A stretch of 64,000 nt of DNA from an uncultured Bacilli bacterium. GTDB lineage: Bacteria; Bacillota_I; Bacilli_A; RF39; UBA660. Made by a program: the position numbers and the translations under genes. The stretch's first letter is position 1. The number at the start of each line of letters is the position of its first letter. The DNA is taken from NCBI GenBank assembly GCA_944358525.1, contig CALVRI010000001.1:10652-74651 (forward strand), read 5' to 3'. A model generated the notes under the pieces. The model did not search any database. It was given only the letters and a program-made list of their open reading frames with translations, and was not told the origin of the DNA. Of this stretch, positions 10,739 through 52,017 are shown piece by piece.

Positions 10739-11500
10739 TTATCTATATAAGTTTATAATTGTGTTAAGATTTATTTGTAATAATAAAAGTAATGCCCCTC
10801 CTGCAGCTAAGAATGGGCCAAATGGGAGAACATGGTCTTTTTTTGTACATAAAATTAATACGGCGATTGGTAAGCCAATTAGTGATCCAACAAATATTGA
10901 TAAAATAGCAATCGGATAAGTTAATACCATGCCAAAGATGAATAATAATTTTATATCGCCACCACCCATAGATTCTTTTTTGAAAAGAAAATCACCGAAT
11001 TTTTTGATTAAATACATGGTAATGAAAGCTAAAATACCGTTTAATAACGAATATAAAGCTGTTTCTAGTCCATTTATACATAATATTTCGATAAATAAAA
11101 TTATACTAAATATAATTAAAACTTCATCTGGTATTATTAAATAATGATAATCGCTTACAACAATTATAATCATCATTGAAATAAAGGTTAAAGCAATAAT
11201 TAGATTTTGGGTTAGTCCAAAAGATAGGTAGCATAAAACAAACAAAACCCCGGTTAATGTTTCAAAGATTGGATAAAATAAAGATATTTTTTGATGACAG
11301 TGTTTGCATTTGCCACCTTGAAAAACATATGACAAAACTGGTATTAATTCAAAGAATGTTAATTTATGATTACAGTTTGTACAATGACTTGGTGGGAAGA
11401 TAATTGATTCACCTTTGGGTAATCTATATCCTACAACATTGTAAAAGGAACCAAAGATGGTTCCTATTATGAATAAAAATATACAAATTGCGACTTCCAT
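10739..11500 (-). CDS. pilD: prepilin peptidase (A24 family, PilD/ComC type)
   Basis: Two CxxC pairs (CTNCNHKL, CKHCHQKI) of the N-terminal zinc domain plus multi-TM peptidase core with GGGDIKLL; ORF extends to 11575, but ATG at 11500 has an AGGTG RBS directly after the pilC stop. Confidence 0.8.
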   Translation of the reverse strand: MEVAICIFLFIIGTIFGSFYNVVGYRLPKGESIIFPPSHCTNCNHKLTFFELIPVLSYVFQGGKCKHCHQKISLFYPIFETLTGVLFVLCYLSFGLTQNLIIALTFISMMIIIVVSDYHYLIIPDEVLIIFSIILFIEILCINGLETALYSLLNGILAFITMYLIKKFGDFLFKKESMGGGDIKLLFIFGMVLTYPIAILSIFVGSLIGLPIAVLILCTKKDHVLPFGPFLAAGGALLLLLQINLNTIINLYR

Positions 11501-11510
11501 AATATCACCT

Positions 11511-13259
11511 TTATGCTTGAATTTGACTATACATTGAGAACATTGGAACAACGATTGATAATACAATAATTCCAACCATTACGGTTAATAGTATTATAAG
11601 GGCCGGCTCAACAAATGTTTTAATACGTGTTACTGAGTTTTTGTGCAAATCTTGATAGTATAATGATATTTTGTGCATCATTTCTGGTAATTGACCAGTT
11701 CTTTCACCAGTAACAATCATTTCGTATGCTGGGATTGGAAAGGCCCATTGATCTTTAAAAGCAGAAGATATTGATTTTCCTTGAGCAATATTATCTATTG
11801 CATCATATATTAATTCTCTATATATTTCGTTATTTGTGACTTTATTTAATATTTCCATACTATCAGTAATAAATACGTTATGTGAAAGTAAGGAAGCAAA
11901 AGTTTTGGTAAAGGTTGTTACTTCTTTATAAATAATAACATCGCCAAATACTGGTAAGTGCATTAGTAATCTTTGTGTCCCTTTTCTAAAAACTTTAACA
12001 TTTTTATATAGATAAATACAAATTATTAATATTACAACTATGCTTACACCAATATAAATGATGTATTTTTGTAAAAATTCACTGAGTGCTAATACAGCAA
12101 GGGTAATTCCTGGTATTGTAGCATTATCCATTGTTTCATAAATTTCGATAAATTTTGGAACAACATATAACATGATGAAGGTCCCAACTCCAATGGCAAT
12201 TACAAATATGATAGCAGGATACATCATAGCTGTAATCATTGCTTTTCTAGTTTCTTCTATTTCGGTATAATATTCTTCCATATCATCTAATATTTCTGGT
12301 AATTCTCCTGTCATTTCAGCTGTTTTAACCATGTTAATTAATAAATTTGGAAAGGCATTTTCTTGTTTTGCCATAGCTTCACTGAAACTTCTTCCTGTTG
12401 TTAAATCATAGTGTAAAGTAGATAAAATTCGTTTGTATTTTTTATTTTTAAATTGTTTTCCCAATATTTTTATTGCATCAGCAAGAGGTATTCCAACTTT
12501 TAGATAAGTTGATACTTGGGCTAAAAAGAATATTAAATCACTTGTTTTGAATTTGTCGTGTGAACCACTAACATTTCCATACATGATATTAATCCATCTG
12601 TTTGTCCTAATGCTATAGACTTTATATCCTTGTGATTTTAAAAATGAGTGTACTTCAACTAATGAATAAGCTGCAAAGTAGCCTTTGACAACTTGTCCTT
12701 CAAGGTTTCGGGCAATATATTCATAAGTCATTTTTTCTTTAGTTTTTTCTGCCTCTGGTCCTTCATAATTAATTGACATTTCTTCAGTATCTTGATATTT
12801 ATCTTTAACTTGTCCCCCAAGGCCTAATTTTGTATCAAATAAGTTTTTAATTTTTTCTGAAAAAGATAATACTTTATTCCCTACTTTATCTAAATTTTCA
12901 CCAGCAGTTTTATCTTCTAATTTAGAACTATCTTGAATATAATCGTTTAAACTTTTTTGAACCTTTTTCTCTCTTAATTGTTGTTGTAATTGTCTTACTC
13001 TTTCTTCTCTTTCTTCGTTTTTTTCTTTTTCTCTTTGGTGTTCTGCTAGTAACATGTCTGTTTTTTTATAACTGTTGTTTGTTTGCTTAGCTTCAATGGT
13101 TACTTTTGGCATAGATTTTCCACCAGTAAATAATCTAACCAACATGGTTGGAAAAGCTAAGATACCTAAGAAAACATGTTTTACAAAACTTACTATTGCT
13201 TTTAAAATGGCTAAAAGGCCATGATAAACATATACAAACGGTGATAATAAAACTTTCAT
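11511..13259 (-). CDS. pilC: type IV pilus / T2SS platform protein (GspF/PilC family) with ~200-aa N-terminal TM + coiled-coil extension
   Basis: Two T2SSF repeats (…LSTLHYDLTTGRSFSEAMAKQENAFPNLLINMVKTAEMTGELPEIL… and …HLPVFGDVIIYKEVTTFTKTFASLLSHNV…); N-terminal 50 aa hydrophobic then KE-rich segment absent from canonical PilC. Confidence 0.8.
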   Translation of the reverse strand: MKVLLSPFVYVYHGLLAILKAIVSFVKHVFLGILAFPTMLVRLFTGGKSMPKVTIEAKQTNNSYKKTDMLLAEHQREKEKNEEREERVRQLQQQLREKKVQKSLNDYIQDSSKLEDKTAGENLDKVGNKVLSFSEKIKNLFDTKLGLGGQVKDKYQDTEEMSINYEGPEAEKTKEKMTYEYIARNLEGQVVKGYFAAYSLVEVHSFLKSQGYKVYSIRTNRWINIMYGNVSGSHDKFKTSDLIFFLAQVSTYLKVGIPLADAIKILGKQFKNKKYKRILSTLHYDLTTGRSFSEAMAKQENAFPNLLINMVKTAEMTGELPEILDDMEEYYTEIEETRKAMITAMMYPAIIFVIAIGVGTFIMLYVVPKFIEIYETMDNATIPGITLAVLALSEFLQKYIIYIGVSIVVILIICIYLYKNVKVFRKGTQRLLMHLPVFGDVIIYKEVTTFTKTFASLLSHNVFITDSMEILNKVTNNEIYRELIYDAIDNIAQGKSISSAFKDQWAFPIPAYEMIVTGERTGQLPEMMHKISLYYQDLHKNSVTRIKTFVEPALIILLTVMVGIIVLSIVVPMFSMYSQIQA

Positions 13260-28102: not shown

Positions 28103-28253
28103 CTCTCTTTCTTTTGCCGTGAATTAAAAAAGCTCTGGATATTATGCCAGAGCTAAAAGACTTTATTAAATGTCTCGGTAGGAAATTAAGCTTCTAGGCA
28201 CCTACTGTCTACGGCATAATTAAACTTACGAATTCATTATATCATAGCTTTTA
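28103..28253 (-). promoter_or_regulatory. rplJL leader (L10 leader-like RNA) with attenuator hairpin AGCTCTGG-atattatg-CCAGAGCT + U6 at 28126-28154
   Basis: 150-nt untranslated region between rplA and rplJ containing GCCGUAGACAGUAGGUGCC-like motif and a perfect 8-bp terminator/antiterminator stem followed by UUUUUU just before the rplJ RBS. Confidence 0.5.
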
Positions 28254-36798: not shown

Positions 36799-37500
36799 CT
36801 AACTAATGAATTCAATCAAATATGGTCCTAATATTAGAACTAAGATTAATGGAACGATGAACAAAACAGAAATGATACTTACTTTATTTGGTATTTTATT
36901 TATTTGTTCTTTGGTAGTCATTAATTCTTTTTGTCTTAAGAAGTCTACTTCATTATATAATGTTTCTAAAATACTATTACCAAATCTATTTGTTTGAATT
37001 ATATTCAATATTATGTTACTGATTATATCTGATGATATATTTTCTCTTAAATCACTTAATGCTTCAATTAACGATTTACCAAATTTCATATCATATAGTG
37101 CCCCTTCAAATAATTGTGAAATTTCTGAATCAACATTATCACATGTAACAATTAAAGCATTTTCTAGATTTCTTCCTGATTCTAAGGTTAAAGTTAATAT
37201 TTCAAAGAAAAATAATGCCTGATGTTCTAATCTTCGGTTTCGAATGTTTATTTTTTTAGTGATATTTAAATAGTAAAATAAATAATAACATCCAATTGCA
37301 ACAAATGGTGCATATATATACCCTGAATCAGTGATTAAAATACATAATATAAATGCAAAAATAGTAGTTATTAATCTATATGTACAAAAGGTGGTAACGG
37401 TATATTTTGTGTCTGAACCTAGACATCTCAATTTATAATCAATTTCATCTAATTCTTTTGAATTATATATTCTTTTAATGAATTTGGTTAGACTCTGCAT
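36799..37500 (-). CDS. Tad-like pilus assembly membrane protein (TadC-like, T2SSF domain)
   Basis: Multi-TM with a cytoplasmic helical domain between TMs characteristic of GspF/TadB/TadC; 1-nt overlap with upstream TadB-like gene. Confidence 0.6.
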   Translation of the reverse strand: MQSLTKFIKRIYNSKELDEIDYKLRCLGSDTKYTVTTFCTYRLITTIFAFILCILITDSGYIYAPFVAIGCYYLFYYLNITKKINIRNRRLEHQALFFFEILTLTLESGRNLENALIVTCDNVDSEISQLFEGALYDMKFGKSLIEALSDLRENISSDIISNIILNIIQTNRFGNSILETLYNEVDFLRQKELMTTKEQINKIPNKVSIISVLFIVPLILVLILGPYLIEFIS

Positions 37501-38993
37501 TAAATCACCACCTTCATTATTTTACGAACTACTACCACAAAAATTATATAGTAAATTATCATAAATAGCAAGAGTATTCGCCCAATATCTGTTGTGATAA
37601 ACGGTAAAAAATATCCCGGATTTATTAAACTGATTACTAAAATGAAGAAAAATGGTATTGCTAGAAGAATATAAATAATGATTCGGCTACCACTAGTCAA
37701 GCTTTTTAATTCTAATCTAAGTTTACGTTTGTCAAATAAACTTCTTTCTATTGTCGAAAACACTTTAATGATGTCGCCACCGGTTTTGTTTAAAATGGTT
37801 AGTGATGCGGTTAAATAATTTGCTTCTTCTAATTCCACTCTTTTGGCGAATCTTTTGAAGACATCTTCAATGTCTAAACCATACTGTAATTCTAAATTCA
37901 TTCGTTTAAATTCATTGCCGATAACCCCATTTACTTCTGAGCCGACAATTTCAATTGCCTGAGTAATACTTCTACCAGATTTAAAGGAATTATTCATAAT
38001 AGTTATAGCAGCAACAAAATCATTTTCTATAGTCCATCTAAATACTTTGTATCTAGCAAATAAATAGATATCTAGTACGAAGAAACCTAAGATAAAGACT
38101 CCTAATGTTTCTAAACTACCTAATAATTTAAACTGAAATGCTTTTATAATAATAGCTAAAACAGTAAAAGCACAGGCAATGATTATTTTGCCAGAGAGTA
38201 TATCATAACCATTTTTATGAATACCACTAACTGATGTATATTTTTCTAGTTTTTTAGCATATTTAGTGGCAATAACTGATTTTTTTAATTTGCTGGTGAA
38301 TAAATTTAAGAAACTGCTATAAATTCTTCTTAACTTTTCTGATGTAGTTACTATATCATCTTTTAGTGGTTTAATTATATATGGATCTAGTCTCTCTTCT
38401 AGTTTAACTAATTTGTACATTTTTACTATTCTAATTATTAATAAGAATATAACTATAAAACAAATAAATTGAATAATATAAATTGTTATATTATGAGGGA
38501 CAACATTTATATTAGCACTTTCAGTAGCTATATTTCCAGCCTCATCCATAACACTACATGTATAAGTATAATTACCGGTCTTATTTAAGGTTAACTCATC
38601 TATATTGGCTATAATTTTGTCATTTAAAGTGCCACTATAATTATCGTTTGCTGTACATGTAATTAAATCTTTATTATTTGTTGGATTAATTTTAAGATTT
38701 TTATTTGATATGTTTATTTTAGGGGCTTCTTTATCTATAATGTATTCGCCACTATTTATAGTATCAGTTAATCCATTATTTAAATTAGCCTCAACAACTA
38801 TTTGATATTTTCCTGTTTCATTTAAAACTATATTAACGGCATTGCTGTTATAAATGTCCACTGTTTTTATAGGAACATTATCTTTATATATTTGATATGT
38901 ATAGGATGTGACATTATTAGATGGTGAAAAAACGATAGTAATATCTTTGTTTGTTGGTTTATCAATACTTTCTATATCGAAATTTCCATTCAT
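37500..38993 (-). CDS. TadB-like platform protein fused to a ~165-aa N-terminal Ig-like (DUF5011-like) domain
   Basis: C-terminal 330 aa has TadB/T2SSF architecture; N-terminal region lacks signal peptide, contains ANDNYSGTLNDKI (DUF5011-like DxxDGxIT motif) and is followed by a TM with positive-inside flank suggesting N-out topology. Confidence 0.6.
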   Translation of the reverse strand: MNGNFDIESIDKPTNKDITIVFSPSNNVTSYTYQIYKDNVPIKTVDIYNSNAVNIVLNETGKYQIVVEANLNNGLTDTINSGEYIIDKEAPKINISNKNLKINPTNNKDLITCTANDNYSGTLNDKIIANIDELTLNKTGNYTYTCSVMDEAGNIATESANINVVPHNITIYIIQFICFIVIFLLIIRIVKMYKLVKLEERLDPYIIKPLKDDIVTTSEKLRRIYSSFLNLFTSKLKKSVIATKYAKKLEKYTSVSGIHKNGYDILSGKIIIACAFTVLAIIIKAFQFKLLGSLETLGVFILGFFVLDIYLFARYKVFRWTIENDFVAAITIMNNSFKSGRSITQAIEIVGSEVNGVIGNEFKRMNLELQYGLDIEDVFKRFAKRVELEEANYLTASLTILNKTGGDIIKVFSTIERSLFDKRKLRLELKSLTSGSRIIIYILLAIPFFFILVISLINPGYFLPFITTDIGRILLLFMIIYYIIFVVVVRKIMKVVI

Positions 38994-39008
38994 CTTTTGT
39001 CACCTCCT

Positions 39009-40337
39009 TTACTCTCCAAAAATATCTTTTAAATCATCAATACCTTTAGCTTTAATAATGTTATATACTTTTGGAATATATTTGTGGAGTAAAAATTCTC
39101 CATCAACATCTCCGTTTGCTAAAACACCAGTTTGTCTGAATTTAAATATTTCTTTTTGGATAATTTCTCCGTTTTCAATACCAATTATTTCATTAATACT
39201 GCTTACCCTTCTTCTTCCATCGGATAATCTTTGAACTTGAACAACTATCTGAATAGCACTTTCAATATATTCTCTAATGGCCGTTACAGGTATTTCCACC
39301 CCATTCATTAAAACCATTGTCTCTAATCTATTTAAAGCATCGGCTGGACCATTTGCGTGCATAGTAGTCATACTTCCTTCGTGTCCAGTATTCATAGCTT
39401 GAAGCATATCGAATGCTTCTTTTCCTCTAACTTCTCCAACAATTATTCTATCAGGTCTCATTCTTAAGGAATTTATTACTAAATCTCTAATAGTAACTGC
39501 CCCTTCACCTTCATAGTTAGTGGTTCTAGTTTCTAAAGATATAACGTGTTCTTGCTTTAATTTTAATTCAGCTGCATCCTCTATAGTAATTATTCTGTCA
39601 TTTGGATTACAAAATGATGATAAGACATTTAGTAAAGTGGTTTTACCGGCACCGGTACCACCAACAACTAAAATATTTAGTTTTGCATGAACACATGCTT
39701 CTAGAAATCTTGCCATATAAGGTGTTAAGGTTCCTGTTCTAAGCAAGTCTTCAATGTTAGCTAGTTCGCTTTTAAACTTTCTAATAGTTACAACTGGACC
39801 ATTTAATGATAAAGGCGGTAAGATTGCATTTAATCTTGAACCATCATCTAGTCTAGCATCAACCATTGGGTGTGCAATATCAATTGTTTTACCGATTGGC
39901 TGAATTAATCTTTGAACAACTCTAACAATATGATCGTTATTGATAAAACTTATACTATCATCTTTGATTACTTTACCATCTAATTCAATGTAAATTTCAT
40001 TTGGAGAATTAACCATGATTTCAGTTATTTCTTTATCCCTTAAAAGTTCAGTTAATGGTCCATAACCATTTACTTCATTATCGATAAGGTTATAAATATA
40101 ACTTAATTCTTCATTGGTTAAGTCATATCCTTCGACTGATTTATCGATTTCATCTTTGACATAATCTTTCATGTTTTCTCTCGTTTTGTCTTTGTTATCG
40201 ATAAGATTTTGAATTATTTTATTTCTTAGTTCGTCTAATAAAACTTTATTGGGAAACTCATCATAGTCATCTATTTCTTGAGGAAGTTTTTGTTCTAAAG
40301 TGGTGGCGAACTCATCCATAAATTTTTTTGTTTCCAT
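39009..40337 (-). CDS. CpaF/TadA-family pilus assembly ATPase
   Basis: Walker A VGGTGAGKTT, Asp box, Walker B IITIEDAAEL, His box MNTGHEGSMTTMHA typical of the VirB11/CpaF clade. Confidence 0.85.
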   Translation of the reverse strand: METKKFMDEFATTLEQKLPQEIDDYDEFPNKVLLDELRNKIIQNLIDNKDKTRENMKDYVKDEIDKSVEGYDLTNEELSYIYNLIDNEVNGYGPLTELLRDKEITEIMVNSPNEIYIELDGKVIKDDSISFINNDHIVRVVQRLIQPIGKTIDIAHPMVDARLDDGSRLNAILPPLSLNGPVVTIRKFKSELANIEDLLRTGTLTPYMARFLEACVHAKLNILVVGGTGAGKTTLLNVLSSFCNPNDRIITIEDAAELKLKQEHVISLETRTTNYEGEGAVTIRDLVINSLRMRPDRIIVGEVRGKEAFDMLQAMNTGHEGSMTTMHANGPADALNRLETMVLMNGVEIPVTAIREYIESAIQIVVQVQRLSDGRRRVSSINEIIGIENGEIIQKEIFKFRQTGVLANGDVDGEFLLHKYIPKVYNIIKAKGIDDLKDIFGE

Positions 40338-40349
40338 GGTTTCCCTCCT

Positions 40350-41090
40350 TTAATTTAAAATTTTATCTAGTAATTCTGTGAGTACTAAAGTGGTTTTATC
40401 TTTTTGGCTTCCTTTTTCCAAAGTAATTATTTTACCATCCATTATTATTTTTGACATATTTTTAACATATGAGCTACTTGGTAAAATATAGTCGATGTTT
40501 CTATCTAAAAAACTGTTTATTTCATATAAATTCAAATGATTTCTACTCAAAGCTTCATTTAATATGACATAATAGTTTTTTAAATTCATATCTTTATATA
40601 TTGAAATCATTGTTTTCATGTTTTTTAAATCCATTAAATCACTTGTAATAACATATATAATACTATTACTATTATCGAAAGTAATTAGATTTATGTCATC
40701 GATGATATGATTGGTATCTATTAAAATTACATCATATTGGTATTTTAGTTTTTTTAATATTAAATCAATATAATAGGTACTTATTTTTCCGACACTTCTC
40801 GGATCTTTAGGAGCGGCTAAGACATCAATATAATCATTGTATTTTGTAATGTATTCATCTATTTCTTTTAAACCATGATTCATGTAATCGTTAACTAAGG
40901 TATATATATCTTTTTTTGGTTTTAGGTTTAATAAGGCAGATATGACACCGGAGTGCAAATCCATATCAACTAAAATTGTTTTTAATTTTTTATTTGATAA
41001 TATGCCGGCTAAAGATAAGGTAGTAGTGCTTTTTCCAGTTCCTCCTTTAGCTGATGTGACAGTAATTACTTTAGCTTGTTTTATGGCCAT
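40350..41090 (-). CDS. CpaE/TadZ-like ParA/MinD-family ATPase (no N-terminal receiver-like domain)
   Basis: Deviant Walker A SAKGGTGKSTTT and ParA fold; position between TadE-like genes and cpaF. Confidence 0.7.
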   Translation of the reverse strand: MAIKQAKVITVTSAKGGTGKSTTTLSLAGILSNKKLKTILVDMDLHSGVISALLNLKPKKDIYTLVNDYMNHGLKEIDEYITKYNDYIDVLAAPKDPRSVGKISTYYIDLILKKLKYQYDVILIDTNHIIDDINLITFDNSNSIIYVITSDLMDLKNMKTMISIYKDMNLKNYYVILNEALSRNHLNLYEINSFLDRNIDYILPSSSYVKNMSKIIMDGKIITLEKGSQKDKTTLVLTELLDKILN

Positions 41091-41101
41091 AACTTATCCC
41101 T

Positions 41102-41467
41102 CTATTCTTTTTGAATTATTATTTTTTCATTTTCTATATAACCATTATAAGTCAAATCAATGTCAAACTTATGGTTAAAATTGAATAAAGCATCATATTT
41201 TTCTTTGACGGTTACTTTAATTACTTTATTTTTTATTTCAACTGTTATGTCACCTTTTATATTTTCTTTTAATAAATCAGTTAAAATAATTTCTAAATTT
41301 TCATTATCTAAATGATTTAAGCCATATTCAATAGTATCTTTTATTTCAGTCTCATATTTGTTTAGGGTTATACTTAAATTTCCAATTTCCCATATCAAAG
41401 CAAATAATATAAATAATATAGGTAAAATTAATATGAATATTACTAATGTTTGACCTTTATTCCCCAT
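41102..41467 (-). CDS. TadE-like pseudopilin (121 aa)
   Basis: Short leader MGNKG|QTLVIFILILPILF then hydrophobic helix (TadE/TadG type; Ile rather than Glu at +5). Confidence 0.55.
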   Translation of the reverse strand: MGNKGQTLVIFILILPILFILFALIWEIGNLSITLNKYETEIKDTIEYGLNHLDNENLEIILTDLLKENIKGDITVEIKNKVIKVTVKEKYDALFNFNHKFDIDLTYNGYIENEKIIIQKE

Positions 41468-41813
41468 TTAATGCCTCATAATTTTCATATATTGTTTTAG
41501 TTGTTTTTATTTCGTAATTTTTACCTAGTATATTTGTTAAACCAGGGGCAGATATTTCAACATTCTTTTTTAAAGTTAAGGTTATCATACCGTTTTTTAT
41601 TTCATCTTCTAAAGTTAAATCTTCATTAGCAAGGTATACCCCTAACTTCTTGGTATCATTACTTTTATACAATTCAGTTACTGTTTCTAAATCTTTGTTT
41701 AAATCATATTTCTTTAAAAAAATATTACCAATATCAATCATTGCCATAGCAATTAATAGTAAAACTGGTAATATCAATATGAATTCCACTAAAGCTTGCC
41801 CCTTCTTATTCAT
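41457..41813 (-). CDS. TadE-like pseudopilin (start probably MNKKG|QALVEF; ORF-finder start 41834)
   Basis: GQALVEFILILPVLLL matches TadE N-terminal motif with Glu at +5; AGGAAAG RBS precedes the second ATG; a TATAAT box lies between the two ATGs. Confidence 0.6.
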   Translation of the reverse strand: MNKKGQALVEFILILPVLLLIAMAMIDIGNIFLKKYDLNKDLETVTELYKSNDTKKLGVYLANEDLTLEDEIKNGMITLTLKKNVEISAPGLTNILGKNYEIKTTKTIYENYEALNGE

Positions 41814-41839
41814 ATTATCACGCTTTCCTATCATAATAA

Positions 41840-41869
41840 ATTATATCAAAAAAAAAGAGTAATAACAAT
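41840..41869 (-). promoter_or_regulatory. candidate internal promoter for the TadE-like genes (-35 TTGTTA / 18 nt / -10 TATAAT)
   Basis: Minus-strand aTTGTTAttactctttttttttgaTATAATttattatg... immediately upstream of TadE-like CDS. Confidence 0.35.
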
Positions 41870-41978
41870 ATGGTTAAGGGAAAATAGTGTAAAATAAGGA
41901 GAAGACATTTTTAAATAAATTGAAGGTTTTCAATTTTTAATGGTGCGGTAAATCAATTTTTTTGCTATGGAAAATGCG

Positions 41979-42004
41979 GTCCACCAAGCTTTGGCTTGGT
42001 GGAC
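41979..42004 (-). terminator. perfect 11-bp hairpin GTCCACCAAGC-tttg-GCTTGGTGGAC, candidate attenuator/terminator between pilus subunit gene and TadE-like genes
   Basis: GC-rich perfect palindrome in an AT-rich spacer; on the minus strand followed by CGCAUUUUCC. Confidence 0.4.
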
Positions 42005-42120
42005 TTATTCTCTATATTTTAAGTATTATTAAATATCTTTTGTGATGTTTCTTTAGAAAAACATATCTATTATATGCACTAAACCCTACACCACCACCTT
42101 TACTATTATTTTTTGAAATG

Positions 42121-42153
42121 TATAATTTGGTATATTTCACACACCAAATTATA
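42121..42153. repeat. perfect 11-bp inverted repeat TATAATTTGGT-(11 nt)-ACCAAATTATA
   Basis: Seen directly in the intergenic region downstream of the 427-aa gene. Confidence 0.5.
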
Positions 42154-42194
42154 CACCATTATATATATTTCATTTTCCCTCGAAATTTGGGGCG

Positions 42195-42224
42195 GTCCCC
42201 GTAAGACTTCGCCTTACAGGGGAC
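42195..42224 (-). other. GC-rich RNA hairpin immediately 3' of the 427-aa subunit gene (GUCCCC-u-GUAAG / CUUAC-GGGGAC, 11 bp with one bulge)
   Basis: Local GC content far above the window average; sits 12 nt after the stop codon and has no U-tract. Confidence 0.45.
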
Positions 42225-42235
42225 ACTTCGTAGCT

Positions 42236-43510
42236 TTATCCCAATTTGAATGCATTTCCTTGACTTCCATCTCCTCCAGTGATTTTAACATTGGAGTTTA
42301 GATATAAGACTGGGCGGACGGCAGCGGAGCTAGTGACGTAAGAGCCATTTCCATTGCCATAAACAGAACCGACCAGACGGGCTGCATAGTTGGAATAACT
42401 GGCATAAGGAGATTGTAACCACTCGGTTATTCCACTATATAAATAATCACTGTTTTTACAACTACTTTTATAATCATAAAGGGCGGTTGATAAACAACTA
42501 CTTCCTGCTGCATATCCATAATCACTTGGATACATTAAACCTATATGTTGGGTTGTACTTGATGGATTTCCACTATATACTTGTGAGCTATCTCTTTCTG
42601 AATTATAGTAACCACTTGCAGTTAAGGTGTTAATATTACTAGAAGTTGATCCTCCTAAATAATAGGTTTCCTCTGATATCATTCCTTTCGATGTAGCTTC
42701 AATACTGTTATAGTATTCTCCATTTAAATATGTTTTTAATGAAGCATTATTCCAATTGTTTGAATTTGATGAATTCCATTTCATATTTCCTAGACTCTCA
42801 TTTCTGATTATTTTTATTTTACCATCTATAACACCTATTATTCTCCATAATTCATTATTAAATGTTACATAGTTATTTGGTGTTGCACCATAGTATCTGA
42901 TATCACCGTGCTCATCAGTGTATAGTTCGTTGGTGTTTGTGGATACCAATTCTGTTATTTTGTCAGTTGCTAATTCACCACTTGGTTCTGGTGGAGTAAC
43001 TCCACCACTTGGTTTTTGTACATAATTCAAGGTAAGTGAAAGTTCACCCGTTAAATTTTCTGGTTGTGAAGTTACATTTGCATAAGATATTTTAACAGTC
43101 ATAGTAGTTTTATCACCAGCTAATAAAGGATCTCCTTCATTAACACCTGATGTTTCAAATATTATTGCAGGATTATTTGAATCTGATTTAGTAATTGAGT
43201 CTAATACTGCATCAATTGTTCCTTTGTTTTCAATAGTAATTTCATATGTCATAGCATCACCTGGAGCATACAAATTAGCTTCCATAGTAGCTGTGGTTGC
43301 TGTGTAAGAAGGCGCTACAGCATTCTCACCAGTTCCAGTTGGTGTTCCTGGAGTAATACCCGTTATTTGAATATCCCAGTTTGAAGTTACAGTAGATGAT
43401 CCTGCAATTTCCAATTGTGTTGAAAAAGCGGCATAACCTATAGTCATACATATTAATATAGCAAGTAAACTACCGATTATTATTGTTCTTTTTTTTCTAT
43501 TTTTATACAT
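42236..43510 (-). CDS. large pilus-associated/surface protein (424-427 aa) with TasA/SipW-cognate-like N-terminal signal and C-terminal domain shared with the 48815..50068 prepilin-like protein
   Basis: N-terminus KKRTIIIGSLLAILICMTIGYAAFSTQLEIAGS resembles the ...G(T)xAxFS(D/T) SipW-cognate signal class; first gene of the Tad-like locus; C-terminal ~230 aa align with the 417-aa protein (NNYxxF..E.WRII ... RPVLYLNSN..TG.G). Confidence 0.5.
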   Translation of the reverse strand: MYKNRKKRTIIIGSLLAILICMTIGYAAFSTQLEIAGSSTVTSNWDIQITGITPGTPTGTGENAVAPSYTATTATMEANLYAPGDAMTYEITIENKGTIDAVLDSITKSDSNNPAIIFETSGVNEGDPLLAGDKTTMTVKISYANVTSQPENLTGELSLTLNYVQKPSGGVTPPEPSGELATDKITELVSTNTNELYTDEHGDIRYYGATPNNYVTFNNELWRIIGVIDGKIKIIRNESLGNMKWNSSNSNNWNNASLKTYLNGEYYNSIEATSKGMISEETYYLGGSTSSNINTLTASGYYNSERDSSQVYSGNPSSTTQHIGLMYPSDYGYAAGSSCLSTALYDYKSSCKNSDYLYSGITEWLQSPYASYSNYAARLVGSVYGNGNGSYVTSSAAVRPVLYLNSNVKITGGDGSQGNAFKLG

Positions 43511-43609
43511 ATATCTCACCCTATTTTAATTATAAGGATTTTTTATTTTATAAACAACGTATTTGTAAGTAAGTGTCAAAATATTTTGTCAATAAATGTA
43601 AAAAAATGC

Positions 43610-46141: not shown

Positions 46142-46333
46142 TTATAATCACTCCCATTTTTTGGTATATTATAACATTTCATTTTTTTATTTTCAAGAAA
46201 GTAGCGAGATTTCAAAAAAACTTTCAAAAAAATTTGAAAGCTTTATTTTAATGCTTCAATTTCGGAAATTGAAAGTTCTTTAGCATTTGAAATGATATCT
46301 ATCAGCTTTGAAAAATTATTAATTTTTTAATGT

Positions 46334-47372: not shown

Positions 47373-48365
47373 TTGATAACAGGTGAAATTATGAGGAAAA
47401 TGACTAGTGTTTTTATTATGATTATCTTATTATTTATCGGCTATGAAATTTTAACCGAATCTGAAAGTATTTTAAATTCAGTTGACTTTTCACTCAATAT
47501 TTTTAAAAACAATATTTTTCCTTCTTTATTTCCATTTTTCGTGCTATCAAATATTTTGATTAAATGTGGACTTCCTGAATTTATGGGAAATTTATTCAAA
47601 GGTGTTATGAATAAAGTTTTTAAAATTAAGGGAGTATGTGCTTTTATCTTTTTCATGAGTATTATATCAGGAAATCCGGCGAATGCAAAATACACGAGAG
47701 AACTTTACAAGGATGGTAAAATTAATAAATACGAGGCAACAAAAATTTTATGTTTTACCTGTTTTTCTAATCCTTTGTTTATTTTAGGAACTGTTTCAAT
47801 ACTTTTTTTAAATAATAAAGAGGCAGGATTACTTATTTTAATCTGTCATTATTTAGGCAATTTATTTATAGGTTTGGGTATGAGAAATTATCATCCAAGT
47901 AAAAAGGAAAATGATAAAAGTAGTTTAAAGAGGGCGATAGATGAGTTGCATAAAAAAAGAATTAGTAATACTGGCAGTTTTGGTGAGGTAATTACTAATT
48001 CTTTGATTAGTAGTATTAATACATTACTTTTAATATTGGGAGTTATTACGACATGTTTGGTGCTTACAACTATTATCGATAATAATCTAAATTTAGACAG
48101 TGTTTTAGGTAGTGTCTTAAATGGTTTTATCGAAATGACTCAGGGACTAAAATATATAAGCTTAGAAGCTATTCCTTTAAAATTAAAATGTGTTTTGACA
48201 GTTATGATTTTATCCTTTGGTGGTCTTTCTGTACATATGCAGATTATGAGTATACTGAGTGATACAGATATTAAATATTTACCATTTTTATGTGCAAGAA
48301 TATGTCATGCAGTATTATCTTCTTTACTTATATATGTTTTATTTGATTTTTGGATTAGTTTATGA
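47373..48365 (+). CDS. YlbJ-like integral membrane protein (nucleoside-recognition/Gate domain family)
   Basis: Multi-TM protein adjacent and divergent to ylbL-like gene, as in the Bacillus ylbJ-ylbL neighbourhood; true start may be the downstream ATG (MRKMTS...). Confidence 0.55.
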   Translation: MITGEIMRKMTSVFIMIILLFIGYEILTESESILNSVDFSLNIFKNNIFPSLFPFFVLSNILIKCGLPEFMGNLFKGVMNKVFKIKGVCAFIFFMSIISGNPANAKYTRELYKDGKINKYEATKILCFTCFSNPLFILGTVSILFLNNKEAGLLILICHYLGNLFIGLGMRNYHPSKKENDKSSLKRAIDELHKKRISNTGSFGEVITNSLISSINTLLLILGVITTCLVLTTIIDNNLNLDSVLGSVLNGFIEMTQGLKYISLEAIPLKLKCVLTVMILSFGGLSVHMQIMSILSDTDIKYLPFLCARICHAVLSSLLIYVLFDFWISL

Positions 48366-48803
48366 AGAATAATAATATGTTACATCAAAGTTGTATTCTT
48401 TTCTTAAATTGCCACTATCTAAAGTCATTTGAACATAAAGATAACAGTTAGTACCATCACACGTATTATTTAAAGCATAACTTTTAATGCTTACAGTATC
48501 TGGCATATTAAAATGCTGTCCACCGATTGTTACTCTATTATTACTTTGATTTATTTGCAATGTTTTGCCATTTATATTACAGGTAGAACCTGAACAAGAA
48601 ACTGAACTACCTACTGGAGTAAGAGAGTTTTCAATGTTCTTAGAGATTATACTGGCTTGTTGTTGGATAGATGTTTTAACACTTGTGTCGGCAAATGTGT
48701 CTTTGACTTCGATTAAAACTTCAAATAAGAATACAGTAATAACCATGGTTAGTGCAAAAGATGCAATTAATTCAATAACTGTAAATCCTTTGTTATTTTT
48801 CAT
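48360..48803 (-). CDS. type IV pilin-like protein (147 aa) with prepilin N-terminal cleavage/methylation motif
   Basis: MKNNKG|FTVIELIASFALTMV: Gly-Phe cleavage site, Glu at +5, hydrophobic helix; Cys pair near the C-terminus. Confidence 0.75.
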   Translation of the reverse strand: MKNNKGFTVIELIASFALTMVITVFLFEVLIEVKDTFADTSVKTSIQQQASIISKNIENSLTPVGSSVSCSGSTCNINGKTLQINQSNNRVTIGGQHFNMPDTVSIKSYALNNTCDGTNCYLYVQMTLDSGNLRKEYNFDVTYYYSS

Positions 48804-48814
48804 TTTGTACCTCC

Positions 48815-50068
48815 TTACCCTATTTTATATGGATCAGTTTGAGTTCCAGAACCTGTCAAAGTTATATTAGAATTTAGATAGACTACTGGGACAACATTGC
48901 GGCTTGAACCTAAGACATCTGTATCATAATAAAATCCGCCGCTATGGATGAATATTGGACTAAATGATGCATTAGCATGGGATATTGTCCACCAATAAGT
49001 ACCTAAACTTGACATCCAATTTGTATTTATACATTTGTTATAATTAGTACTTATTAAAGATGCTGTTCCACATTCTACATTATTAGTATTAGCTCTTATG
49101 TATTCACTTGGTGCAATTAAGCCTACTTTACCATTCCAATTTGTACTATTTTCTGAGGTTATTTGTGATGCGAGATCATTATTATTATAATTAATCGTAC
49201 CGATTGGCCAGTTATGAGAAGTTATTTGAGATTGTTCAGATAATGTCTGTAAATAAGTGCTATTTAAATATGTATTTAAAGTTGCCGGGGCATTCCAAGT
49301 GCTGACACCTTCAGTATCCCAAGGCATATTGGCTATATTTTGAGATCTCATTATTTTTAACGTACCATCAGAATTTATTGAGATTATCCTCCAAGTTTCT
49401 CCACTAAAGTTTATATAATTATTTGGGTTTGCTCCTTTATAAGTGTATTTTCCTGTTTCAAAGCTATCTGCATACAACCCATCGTTTTCGGTAACAATTG
49501 GAATATTAACCCCACCTACTGTTATGGTGTTTTCTTCCGGTGTTTCTTCAATATATAATTGATTATCCATGGCGATAGTTGCATATGTGTCATTGTTAAA
49601 TTCAGCAAATAATCTTCCTTTATTTTGAACTACATTGGTTTCTACTTTAGAAATAAAATCACGGAATTTTTGATTTATATTATTATCTTCTTTAGTAGAA
49701 ATATATTTTTTTATGATGCTGATATCAGAATAGGTATAAATAATAGTTTTGGCGTCCATTTTATTAATGAGGTTGTCGCAAAAGTTGTCTATTATTCCGG
49801 CATCCATGTTACAAGAACCATCTTTATATACAACAACATATGGTAATGCTTGTGTTAACTTTGTAGATAAATCATAATTGTTTGTTTGTAGATAATTTGC
49901 AACTGATGATAAATCATAAATTGATTCGACATTGTTATAATTATAACTATTTTTATAATTAGTTGTAAGATTACTAAATTGAATATAAAGCAATATTAAT
50001 ACTGTTAAAACAAAAGTTGACACAACTAATGACTCCGCTAATAAAAAACCCCTATTATCTTTTTTCAT
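48815..50068 (-). CDS. large prepilin-like protein (417 aa) with C-terminal putative adhesin domain
   Basis: MKKDNRG|FLLAESLVVSTFVL prepilin signal (Glu +5); C-terminal ~220 aa homologous to the C-terminus of the Tad-locus 427-aa protein. Confidence 0.65.
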   Translation of the reverse strand: MKKDNRGFLLAESLVVSTFVLTVLILLYIQFSNLTTNYKNSYNYNNVESIYDLSSVANYLQTNNYDLSTKLTQALPYVVVYKDGSCNMDAGIIDNFCDNLINKMDAKTIIYTYSDISIIKKYISTKEDNNINQKFRDFISKVETNVVQNKGRLFAEFNNDTYATIAMDNQLYIEETPEENTITVGGVNIPIVTENDGLYADSFETGKYTYKGANPNNYINFSGETWRIISINSDGTLKIMRSQNIANMPWDTEGVSTWNAPATLNTYLNSTYLQTLSEQSQITSHNWPIGTINYNNNDLASQITSENSTNWNGKVGLIAPSEYIRANTNNVECGTASLISTNYNKCINTNWMSSLGTYWWTISHANASFSPIFIHSGGFYYDTDVLGSSRNVVPVVYLNSNITLTGSGTQTDPYKIG

Positions 50069-50174: not shown

Positions 50175-51527
50175 ATGATGAAATCATTTGACTTTGCCAA
50201 AGTTCCAATAGTCGATATTATAAATGAGATTTTAGTAGATTCTTCAAAAAAAGGAGCTAGTGATATTCACTTTGATCCTTATGAAGATCATTTACTTATT
50301 AGGATAAGAATTGATGGAGTTTTAATGGATTATGCGACAGTTCCAGAAGCATATCGTGATTACTTGATAACTCGCATCAAAACAATTTCTAAAATGAACA
50401 TTACAGAATCAAGGTTACCACAAGATGGAGCAATTAAAGAAACACTAGATGGAATTGATTTAGATTTACGTGTTTCTTCTTTACCTGTAAGTACTGGAGA
50501 AAAAATAGTTATTCGTATTTTGGATTATTCTAGAAGTATGGCTGGTTTAAATGAACTTGGATTTAGCGAGGATAATTATAAAAAAGTTTTAGAGATGATT
50601 AGTGTTCCAAATGGTATTATTTTAGTAACTGGAGCAACCGGTACTGGTAAATCTACGACTGTTTACTCTATTTTACAGCATTTAAACACTTCGGCTACAA
50701 ATATTATTACAGTTGAGGATCCAATAGAAATGGATATTACTGGTATTAATCAAGTTCAAACTAATCCTAAAATTGGTCTTACATTTGCGACAGCTTTAAG
50801 ATCTATTTTAAGACAAGATCCGAATATTATTATGATTGGTGAAATAAGAGATACCGAGACAGCTAAAATTGCTGTACGTGCTTCAATTACTGGTCATTTG
50901 GTTCTTTCAACATTACACACTAATACAGCATTAAATACTATTGAAAGATTAATTGATATGGATGTTCAAAGATATTTACTTGCTTCAGCTTTAGAAGGAG
51001 TTATTTCACAAAAACTAGCAAGGCAATTATGCCCACACTGTAAAACAAAAAGAAAAACTAGTGAATATGAAAAGATGGTTTTTAAAAGTGTTTTAAATAA
51101 AGATGTCGATGAAATATATGATACTGAAGGATGTGAACATTGCCATGATGGTTATCTCGGTCGTATTGCAATACACGAAGTACTTAGAATCGACCAAGAT
51201 ATTCGTGATGCATTAAGTAATGGCAAGCCTAAAGAAGAGATTAGAAGGCTTGTATATGGTACTGGTAATGTTACGACGATGCTTCAAGATGGACTTAAAA
51301 AAGTTATTGAAGGAAAAACTACTTTTGAAGAGATTCTTAAATTAATTGAACTTGAGGATGATGACAAAATTAGTAGCAATGATGAACTAAAAGAAGCAAT
51401 TATGGAGAAAAAAGAAGAACTAGTTGCGGAGGAACGTCAAGAAGGAGAATATTTGGGAAATCGTGAAGATTTGGGCAGTATTCCAAAGAGTGTTTATGGT
51501 GAAGATATTGAAAGTTTAGATATATAA
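50175..51527 (+). CDS. pilB: type IV pilus / T2SS assembly ATPase (GspE/PilB family) lacking the N-terminal GspII_E_N domain, with acidic C-terminal tail
   Basis: Walker A GATGTGKST, Asp boxes, Walker B, His box, and tetracysteine zinc motif CPHC...CEHC; last ~60 aa are D/E-rich; AAGGTGG RBS. Confidence 0.85.
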   Translation: MMKSFDFAKVPIVDIINEILVDSSKKGASDIHFDPYEDHLLIRIRIDGVLMDYATVPEAYRDYLITRIKTISKMNITESRLPQDGAIKETLDGIDLDLRVSSLPVSTGEKIVIRILDYSRSMAGLNELGFSEDNYKKVLEMISVPNGIILVTGATGTGKSTTVYSILQHLNTSATNIITVEDPIEMDITGINQVQTNPKIGLTFATALRSILRQDPNIIMIGEIRDTETAKIAVRASITGHLVLSTLHTNTALNTIERLIDMDVQRYLLASALEGVISQKLARQLCPHCKTKRKTSEYEKMVFKSVLNKDVDEIYDTEGCEHCHDGYLGRIAIHEVLRIDQDIRDALSNGKPKEEIRRLVYGTGNVTTMLQDGLKKVIEGKTTFEEILKLIELEDDDKISSNDELKEAIMEKKEELVAEERQEGEYLGNREDLGSIPKSVYGEDIESLDI

Positions 51528-51559
51528 AAAATACAGCTTAATTTTGAGCTGTATTTTCA
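51528..51559. terminator. bidirectional terminator (11-bp stem AAAATACAGCT / AGCTGTATTTT) between convergent pilB and 51538..52017
   Basis: Perfect inverted repeat overlapping the 3' end of the minus-strand ORF, flanked by A/T runs. Confidence 0.55.
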
Positions 51560-52017
51560 TATTGTTCAATTACTTTAGATGTAACACCTTTTAAGTTACC
51601 TTTGGTAACTGCAGTTATAGTTTTTGTTTCATTAGGTTTTAGTGAGCTACCTATATTACCACGTAAAGTTATAACATTATTACCATCTTTATCTTTTAAA
51701 ACAATATTTACATCATTTATATTGCTGTCTGTTTGATTTGTATTAGTAACATCAGCTGTAAATGTGCTATAACCATTTTCTGATATAAGAGAAATATTGG
51801 TAAATTTTAAGCCTTCATATGTTTCTTCTTTGATGACATCAGCAGATGTGTTGGCAGTTATACCATTTTCATCATTTTTTGTTATTTGTTCTTTTCCAAA
51901 ACCAAAAGATATTATTAATCCAATAATTAAAGCAATTATCGCAACTAAGAAAATAATTAGTTGAATTTTATATTTTTTAGCAAATTCTATTACATCTTCC
52001 TTTTTTAGTTTTTTCAT
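51538..52017 (-). CDS. membrane-anchored hypothetical protein (159 aa) with Thr/Asn-rich extracellular domain
   Basis: N-terminal signal anchor IQLIIFLVAIIALIIGLIISF then beta-rich T/N/S sequence. Confidence 0.4.
   Translation of the reverse strand: MKKLKKEDVIEFAKKYKIQLIIFLVAIIALIIGLIISFGFGKEQITKNDENGITANTSADVIKEETYEGLKFTNISLISENGYSTFTADVTNTNQTDSNINDVNIVLKDKDGNNVITLRGNIGSSLKPNETKTITAVTKGNLKGVTSKVIEQYENTAQN

Follow-up and report, generated by a model that had tools for sequence, protein, structure and literature searches.

Diversity-generating retroelements (DGRs) use an error-prone reverse transcriptase (RT), which copies a template repeat (TR) and randomises its adenines, and the cDNA then replaces a variable region (VR). 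The ligand-binding variable proteins of DGRs use a C-type-lectin-like fold class (PMC12237041, PMC10743442), and gut-phage DGRs target lectin-fold domains of the Pfam family DUF6273, their variable region being located at the domain's C-terminal end (PMC10743442, PMC11792537). The only solved member of this family, the domain at the N-terminus of the T. ramosa IgA protease (IgAse; 9QA6), is built on a C-type-lectin-like core to which large decorations are added, has roughly double the size of a normal C-type-lectin-like domain, or CTLD, and is without the long loop and disulfides of canonical CTLDs; catalysis proceeds without it (PMC12237041). Here, a 64,000-nt stretch of contig CALVRI010000001.1 from an uncultured Bacilli bacterium was analysed (the window, with an overall GC content of 28.7%; all coordinates are window positions), in which two genes on the minus strand, referred to as gene 1 and gene 2, share a C-terminal DUF6273 module. 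The explanation that we consider likely overall is that this module is a portable cassette, which is carried by gene 2 as a modular type IV minor pilin and by gene 1 as a Sec-exported protein with a DGR-type variable region.

The carriers differ from those described for the family. The T. ramosa domain is located N-terminally on the M64 peptidase of a sortase-anchored protein, whereas the modules described here are located C-terminally on a pilin or an Ig-like stalk; the IgAse domain also has a structural zinc site, no variable region and no essential part in catalysis, whereas the gene 1 copy has a conserved Cys pair (PMC12237041). Compared with the C-type-lectin targets of DGRs (Bordetella phage Mtd, Treponema TvpA, the gut-phage 'tentaclins' and Faecalibacterium prophage targets with DUF6273; phage tail or capsid), the carriers here are chromosomal and belong to the cell surface. 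The window copy has lost its TR, Avd and RT in cis, and non-variable paralogues such as gene 2 coexist with it.

Gene 2 can be compared with the modular pilins PilB (vWA) and PilC (lectin) of Streptococcus sanguinis (PMC8179133), as it has a class III signal and a small pilin module, joined through a short linker to a bulky non-pilus module, is encoded with another minor pilin and an assembly ATPase, and has a predicted role in filament-presented adhesion. The grafts in S. sanguinis are a vWA and a concanavalin-like lectin domain, whereas the graft here is DUF6273, with DUF285/leucine-rich repeat (LRR) or ricin domains as alternative grafts in near-identical strains; unlike in S. sanguinis, the graft of one relative carries a VR matching the TR of a DGR in its own genome. 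The DGR-diversified tip adhesins of Bacteroides type V pili, which show strain-level and in-host variation (bioRxiv 10.1101/2024.11.15.621889), are similar in that a DGR-diversified domain is placed on a pilus subunit in gut bacteria. They differ in phylum, in pilus type (type V, with lipoprotein subunits and strand-exchange assembly) and in carrier domains, and the Bacteroides targets lie beside stalk and anchor genes, often within integrative and conjugative elements.

The two genes and their modules are as follows, all on the minus strand.

42236..43519, minus: gene 1 as listed, with a GTG start (open reading frame (ORF) list and translation)
42236..43510, minus: gene 1 from the ATG, consisting of signal or anchor, Ig-like scaffold, linker and DUF6273 module (AlphaFold2 (AF2) model, pLDDT 83.6)
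42239..42955, minus: DUF6273 (C-type-lectin-like) module of gene 1
48815..50068, minus: gene 2, modular type IV minor pilin of 417 aa
48818..49504, minus: DUF6273 module of gene 2, a static paralogue without the variable-region signature

The GTG at 43519 lies three codons ahead of the ATG at 43510 (MYKNRKK..., 424 aa), which is likely the true start and is where all homologues begin; residue numbers 192-427 of gene 1 are nevertheless counted from the listed GTG. The original prediction, that the C-terminal halves of both proteins are colinearly alike while their N-termini are unrelated, was borne out on both counts. Residues 192-427 of gene 1 and 191-417 of gene 2 aligned by BLASTP with 32% identity and 52% positives (E = 2e-26 with compositional adjustment), and phmmer gave E = 7e-23. 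A profile-profile comparison (hhalign) of the two families reached a probability of 100% and E = 2.2e-66 over 236 columns, all of them inside the C-terminal module, while the N-terminal halves gave no alignment. The similarity is therefore true homology. The conserved Cys of the module were confirmed as two invariant residues in the gene 1 family (C339, C351) and one in the gene 2 module. No third copy of the module was found in the window by phmmer. The two genes are separated by mutS, a Lon/PDZ protease gene and a ylbJ-like gene, and the pilus loci are not adjacent.

The module belongs to a family that already has a name and a known fold, and whose link to DGRs has been described before. Pfam DUF6273 (PF19789) matched residues 237-408 of gene 1 with 36 bits against a cut-off of 23.5, and Pfam matches to DUF6273 were found in 25 of the 52 gene 2 homologues. 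The fold of the module is that of the 9QA6 domain, and it has the core topology of CTLDs; the link to 9QA6 comes from this fold comparison, since neither family profile found anything meaningful when solved structures were searched by sequence. The lectin-like surface domain that had been proposed is therefore upheld as a DUF6273 module of C-type-lectin-like fold on surface scaffolds, and a lectin-like binding module is supported, with a predicted ligand-binding role. What had been missed was that this is a known Pfam family, that the cassette varies between strains and that the gene 1 copy has a DGR variable region.

The pilus-related features around gene 2 are listed below.

50048..50068, minus: class III (prepilin) leader MKKDNRG FLLAE, cut MKKDNRG|FLLAE, with Glu at +5 (read from the sequence)
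48360..48803, minus: 147-aa minor pilin directly downstream of gene 2, G FTVIE, cut G|FTVIE (N_methyl Pfam match)
50175..51527, plus: PilB/GspE-type assembly ATPase, divergent from gene 2 (T2SSE, 419 bits; NCBIfam GspE/PilB)
10739..11575, minus: prepilin peptidase PilD (Pfam A24_N_bact and Peptidase_A24)
11511..13259, minus: platform protein PilC (two T2SSF matches)

The N-terminus of gene 2, MKKDNRG|FLLAESLVVSTFVL, has the short charged leader ending in Gly and the hydrophobic alpha1N segment of class III signals, and G7, F8, L9, L10 and E12 were invariant in the 52 gene 2 homologues. In the AF2 model, residues 6-42 form a helix within a pilin-like fold, and two confident domains are joined by a low-confidence linker at residues 170-178. 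This organisation, a pilin module and DUF6273 on either side of a short linker, agrees with the description of modular pilins by Raynaud et al. (2021). Matches of gene 2 to the N_methyl, ComGD and ComGE models were sub-threshold. The 147-aa minor pilin was paired with gene 2 in L001, L002, L005, L008, L010, L011 and L025 (L-numbers are contigs or loci of related genomes, P-numbers are homologous proteins), and the trio of PilB, gene 2 and pilin was conserved down to 39% identity, with L006 and L014 as exceptions. With PilD and PilC also encoded in the window, the earlier view of gene 2 as a prepilin-like type IV subunit holds, and it is credible that gene 2 encodes a type IV minor pilin with a grafted module, which is predicted to be incorporated into a filament. 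The type IV machinery is scattered, the PilD and PilC genes being about 37 kb from those of PilB and the pilins, and the window gave no recognisable gene for a major pilin, PilM/N/O or PilT. Beside pilB, a membrane protein of 159 aa is encoded (51538..52017, minus), which is present in all relatives (158-160 aa) and whose sole family match is a faint one to the archaeal pilin N-terminal family (E = 0.08).

The N-terminal part of gene 1 is of a different kind.

43427..43510, minus: signal of Sec type or signal anchor, neither class III nor Flp-type, with KNRKKR followed by a hydrophobic stretch and the junction GYA|AFS (read from the sequence)
43001..43426, minus: Ig-like beta-sandwich scaffold domain (scaffold a)

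The AF2 model shows the N-domain of gene 1 as all-beta and Ig-like, not as a pilin helix, and the GYAAF motif is kept across the scaffold (a) family. A search of related genomes extended the proposal that the module occurs on unrelated scaffolds, as at least four kinds of N-terminal scaffold carrying it were found.

Scaffold (a): signal, GYAAF motif and Ig-like domain (gene 1 type), at times extended by Flg_new and FN3 repeats
Scaffold (b): prepilin module (gene 2 type)
Scaffold (c): proteins of about 310 aa with a membrane anchor and an NVQGAIDELY motif
Scaffold (d): tandem or other arrangements

The search with gene 1 gave more than 6000 significant protein matches among the matches listed, and at least 546 matching stretches were present in species-representative genomes (tblastn, E <= 1e-3). 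The best 80 of these at least 546 stretches were all from uncultured gut Bacilli, 'Tenericutes' or CAG:822-type metagenome-assembled genomes, with chromosomes of about 1.4-1.5 Mb and several copies of the module each. The exchange also works in the other direction, with prepilin modules of 77-84% identity to that of gene 2 (P0195-P0217) fused elsewhere to DUF285/BspA-like LRR or ricin-type lectin domains, and scaffold (a) occurring in many stand-alone proteins of 163-176 aa, one of them in Candidatus Saccharibacteria (P0335). Some DUF6273 paralogues are flanked by IS91-type (Y2) and IS200-type (Y1) transposase and integrase genes (L012 7285-9912, L036 3328-4509), and in L036 the DGR target is separated from its template repeat by an inserted transposase-like gene.

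At the 3' end of gene 1, the following features were found.

42310..42430, minus: DGR-type variable region, the last ~110 nt before the conserved C-terminal strand, ending in GCCGTCCGCCCAG
42192..42226, minus: GC-rich hairpin just past the stop codon (-19.3 kcal/mol, z = -3.0)
42012..42140, minus: truncated remnant of a small cassette ORF, 42 codons (alignment to L026/L028)

The variable region has a GC content of 0.47-0.55 and an A content of 0.17-0.25, against a window GC of 0.29. Its codons vary across paralogues at positions 1 and 2, while the third position is fixed as T or C (NNC/NNT), which is the pattern that AAC/AAT template codons would be expected to give. When the 102 nt at 42310..42411 were compared with the TR of L026 (Firmicutes bacterium CAG:822), 18 of 34 TR-adenine sites were changed, compared with 6 of 68 others (Fisher p = 1.9e-6). 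The TR 3' ends of L026, L028 and L036 have exactly the same boundary sequence, GCCGTCCGCCCAG, which resembles the GC-rich boundary of an initiation of mutagenic homing (IMH) site.

The 3' flank of gene 1 points to a former cassette. From the stop codon to about 42020, it is >90% identical to the spacer between target and TR in L026 and L028, and the hairpin at 42192..42226 also lies, by alignment, behind the cis targets of the complete DGR cassettes in these two loci. The translation of 42012..42140, GGGVGFSAYNRYVFLKKHHKRYLII, corresponds to the beginning (~26 codons) of the L026/L028 ORF, after which it terminates and the homology ends; this small ORF between target gene and TR is conserved in the complete cassettes of L026, L028 and L036. 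Judged from the nucleotide and codon patterns, gene 1 appears to carry a DGR-type variable region with a truncated cassette behind it, on which a DGR may still act. As TR, Avd and RT are missing and the cassette is truncated at the locus, gene 1 appears to be a former cis target that is now either the remote target of a DGR located elsewhere or an orphan. A variable region in gene 2 was also considered and rejected, as the gene has normal codon usage, no similarity to a TR and near-identity between strains.

Complete DGRs acting on the module were found in relatives. RT genes with the DGR-typical IGxxxSQ and YMDD motifs are present at eight related loci (L026, L028, L036, L047, L049, L053, L082 and L093). 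At most of these the distance to a DUF6273 gene is 1-3 kb, and every one of the eight has a TR-VR pair. The mismatches between TR and VR fell largely on TR adenines, with 33 of 39 in L026, 21 of 27 in L028, 13 of 15 in L036 and 20 of 21 in L053. In L026 the order is target, TR, 116-aa ORF, Avd and RT, with the target on scaffold (a); family matches, which were checked for this locus only, gave 71 bits to RVT_1 for the RT and E = 3e-13 for Avd. In the same organism, CAG:822, the TR on HF990851 (L026 11225-11331) matches a VR on a second contig, HF990867 (L025 10585-10691), with 19 changes at adenine sites and 4 at others. The protein carrying this VR is a DUF6273 protein on the prepilin scaffold, encoded divergently from pilB and followed by a pilin gene. 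From this TR-VR match, the L025 protein is apparently a type IV pilin that serves as a remote DGR target, and we found no literature reports of DGRs acting on type IV pilins or prepilins. The pilin-borne copy would offer a concrete case in which a retroelement diversifies a subunit of the type IV pilus.

The position of gene 1 is also variable between strains. In contigs of the same species (mutS 97.7-98.8% identical, tadA 99%), the first 660 nt of gene 1 are identical to those of L011, after which there are scattered changes in the module (34 positions upstream of the variable region), then 40 differences in ~110 nt, and identity resumes behind the variable region through the stop codon and the 3' flank. 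Within the variable region, the differences between the window and L011 were enriched at TR-adenine sites, with 19 of 34 compared with 11 of 70 others (p = 4e-5). For three other homologues (P0004, P0008 and P0013), identity to gene 1 is 98-99% over the N-domain but 37-40% over the module; in L002, the contig of P0013, the whole module has been replaced by a subtype of 37% identity, while mutS is 97.7% identical. In two conspecific or near-conspecific contigs (L174 8001-8531, L175 1029-1559), the slot is occupied by a 176-aa Ig-like scaffold with no C-terminal module, and homology to the window returns only ~45 nt before tadE. In L014, the slot contains a scaffold (c) protein and an Rpn-family gene, the latter between the DUF6273 gene and tadE. 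Gene 2 differs between these strains by at most 3 nt in 1254 and diverges evenly in more distant relatives.

An Rpn-family gene (PDDEXK_2 with HTH_Rpn_C; a recombination-promoting nuclease or transposase-like protein) was also noticed between the lon-like gene and mutS in several relatives, and is found neither in the window (gap 46142..46333) nor in L011. It may contribute to the variability of the region. The Rpn-family genes are located as follows.

L001 6437-7255: Rpn-family gene
L002 6431-7261: Rpn-family gene
L005 5767-6621: Rpn-family gene
L008 14057-14911: Rpn-family gene
L014 11101-12009: Rpn-family gene

A prophage origin was rejected, as the flanking genes are housekeeping genes (mutS, murC, rpoB/C and ribosomal protein genes) and phage structural genes are absent.

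Taken as a mechanism, recombination at the short linker would graft the DUF6273 cassette onto unrelated N-termini for surface display. The product of gene 2 would most likely be processed by PilD and probably enter a filament built by PilB and PilC; its most likely place is the tip, alongside the minor pilin of 147 aa, where the module could bind a ligand. Gene 1 would be a Sec-exported Ig-like stalk that carries a second DUF6273 subtype, in which DGR mutagenesis could diversify the binding face of the lectin fold, and the change from strain to strain would then be the result of both DGR mutagenesis and whole-module replacement. The locus thereby links lectin-fold DGR variable proteins, modular type IV pilins and the swapping of adhesin cassettes in an uncultured, host-associated lineage. 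The expansion of DUF6273, its strain variability and its partial hypermutation point to attachment as a key selective pressure on the group; its targets would be host glycans, mucus, antibodies or other microbes. Both genes can now be named, as a DUF6273-containing modular pilin and a DUF6273 DGR-type variable protein, rather than left as 'hypothetical'.

Several observations weigh against this explanation. Gene 2 itself has no direct Pfam match to DUF6273 or N_methyl, and its homologue in L006 lies a long way from pilus genes. None of the DUF6273 domains has a known ligand, and the domain is dispensable for the activity of the T. ramosa IgA protease (PMC12237041). For gene 1, neither an RT, an Avd nor a TR was found in the 64-kb window or in 20-kb conspecific contigs, which counts against current DGR activity on it; the search in the window covered Pfam scans of most other ORFs of at least 90 aa and an RT motif scan, and low-stringency BLASTN with the 3' ends of both genes gave only self matches and so no TR. 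The TR that was used in the adenine comparison is from another species and leaves 6 non-adenine differences, and the window and L011 differ at the 11 of 70 non-adenine sites and the 34 upstream positions given above. Recombination with paralogues therefore contributes and could explain much of the difference between the strains.

If taken further, this leads to the alternative that the variable region of gene 1 is a fossil and that the many DUF6273 paralogues, former DGR targets among them, account for all strain differences by recombining or undergoing gene conversion with one another. The truncated cassette and the missing RT, Avd and TR are what such a history would leave, as are the differences from L011 outside the variable region and at non-adenine sites within it; conspecific strains show module replacement and module loss, and mobile-element genes flank some paralogues (L012, L036). 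However, the variable region has kept an intact frame, strong A-depletion, NNC/NNT codons and a GC-rich 3' boundary identical to a TR end, and these features would be expected to decay in a genome of 29% GC. The conspecific differences are also concentrated at TR-adenine sites, and a remote DGR target exists in a relative (L025/L026). A pure fossil is therefore somewhat unlikely, and we prefer a combination of DGR mutagenesis and module replacement.

For the N-domain of gene 1, another possibility is that it is a fibre subunit similar to TasA or camelysin with a SipW-type signal, unrelated to Tad. The stand-alone homologues of 163-176 aa would then be the major subunits of a donor-strand-exchange fibre, and gene 1 its module-bearing variant. 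A|AF is the cleavage context of TasA, which GYA|AFS of gene 1 resembles, and gene 1 shares with TasA and camelysin a signal peptide, a single beta-sandwich of similar size, a PGD...Y.I.I.N.G-type motif and the presence of stand-alone and extended members. Faint matches to Peptidase_M73 (camelysin) were obtained for gene 1 (E = 0.011) and, in precomputed results, for several homologues; single-domain stand-alone homologues are abundant, and an S26 signal peptidase with a DUF5305 neighbour is encoded ~8 kb from one of them (L176). However, unlike for TasA and camelysin, the match of gene 1 scores 16 bits, short of the Pfam threshold of 22.5, and extends over no more than 24 residues, the SipW-class signal model did not match, and no signal peptidase gene was found in the window by Pfam scans of most ORFs of at least 90 aa. 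Fold comparison of the scaffold showed no preference for TasA over generic Ig folds. The SipW/TasA-like signal originally proposed is weakly supported, by the camelysin match below threshold. This alternative is therefore unlikely, and a fibre-subunit role of the scaffold (a) homologues is conceivable as a hypothesis. The region in L176 (1-2132; another Firmicute), which contains the S26 signal peptidase (380 aa), the DUF5305 protein and an N_methyl pilin-like gene ~6-8 kb upstream of the scaffold (a) homologue, is a possible lead on the processing of scaffold (a).

The remaining alternative on gene 1 concerns the Tad locus downstream of it.

36799..41834, minus: Tad-type operon with TadE-like, second TadE-like, CpaE/TadZ ATPase, TadA/CpaF ATPase, TadB and TadC genes (Pfam)
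41978..42005, minus: second hairpin with UUUU, intrinsic-terminator-like, at the divide between gene 1 and Tad (-22.4 kcal/mol, z = -7.2, 0/200 shuffles as stable)
41840..41868, minus: sigma-70-like promoter (TTGTTA, 17-nt spacer, TG-TATAAT) right before tadE

In the original prediction, the module was a tip adhesin on the lead subunits of two pili, with gene 1 in a Tad pilus and gene 2 in a type IV pilus. Its gene 2 half is well supported, as described above, and the position of gene 1 is suggestive. Gene 1 or its scaffold lies directly upstream of tadE in all close relatives, even where the module is missing (L001, L002, L005, L011, L174), the Tad operon itself being conserved in these loci and in L014, and in the more distant L010 both gene 1 and the operon are missing at this position. 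DUF6273 or scaffold (a) genes flank Tad operons in varied arrangements in L014, L027, L077, L094, L100 and L114, and a weak enrichment near Tad operons was found (3 of 4 matches in 24% of the surveyed length, binomial p = 0.044).

However, gene 1 has no pilin signal. The G|xxxxE(Y/F) processing motif is absent from gene 1 (MYKNRKKRTIIIGSLLAILICMTIGYAAFS), and no Flp, TadE or N_methyl match was obtained for it even at E <= 1, whereas the true TadE-like genes of the operon (41457..41834 and 41102..41467) have both a motif of this type (G|QALVEF, G|QTLVIF) and a TadE match; its N-domain fold is an Ig sandwich. Two hairpins, one of them terminator-like, and a promoter-like site that is kept in L174 despite a different upstream cassette separate gene 1 from tadE. 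Scaffold (a) genes also occur in L022, L026, L028, L030, L034, L046 and L072 where the fetched flanks contain no Tad genes. Of 25 Tad operons on related metagenome contigs, only three are accompanied, at a distance of up to 1.5 kb, by a gene for DUF6273 or scaffold (a) (22 of 25 have none), and the slot before tadE can be occupied by a different scaffold, as in L014. Gene 1 is therefore probably not a part of the Tad pilus and not its lead subunit, which leaves the claim of two pilus lead subunits standing for the type IV pilin only. The two-pilus model is quite unlikely as a whole, and a functional link between gene 1 and Tad is possible, with low probability.

A wider reading, to which we give an equally low probability, is that one DGR template services a repertoire of DUF6273 modules plugged onto a type IV pilin, an Ig-like stalk and short membrane-anchored forms, which would result in programmable hypervariable filament tips. 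Gene 1 would then be an active remote target, its place before tadE would reflect a functional Tad link, and the Ig-like stalk may polymerise or dock on the Tad pilus, which we also think improbable. If this is true, the form on the pilin would be the first case of a type IV pilin diversified by a DGR.

The weakest alternative, that the likeness of gene 1 and gene 2 is a compositional artefact of low complexity, as both C-terminal halves are rich in Asn, Ser, Thr and Tyr, is practically excluded by the composition-adjusted BLASTP (E = 2e-26), by the profile-profile alignment (E = 2e-66) with its colinear conserved motifs and by the fold comparison.

Some observations on the Tad region remain to be added. 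The 400 bp ahead of tadE (41835..42235) were searched for a gene encoding a small Flp-type pilin, and none was found; some relatives have an extra TadE-like ORF of 70-83 aa before tadE (L094 5369-5620, L097 8300-8512, L098 8173-8403). The TadB-like protein (37500..38993, minus; 497 aa) has faint Ig-like matches (Big_3_3, Big_13) in its N-terminal ~170 residues before T2SSF, an extension that TadB proteins do not usually have; in some relatives (L077, L097-L101) TadB is shorter, at ~340 aa. Rfam returned no known RNA in the spacer between gene 1 and tadE, and its sole match in the window was the ribosomal protein L10 leader (RF00557, 65.9 bits) at 28117..28232 on the minus strand, upstream of rplJ.

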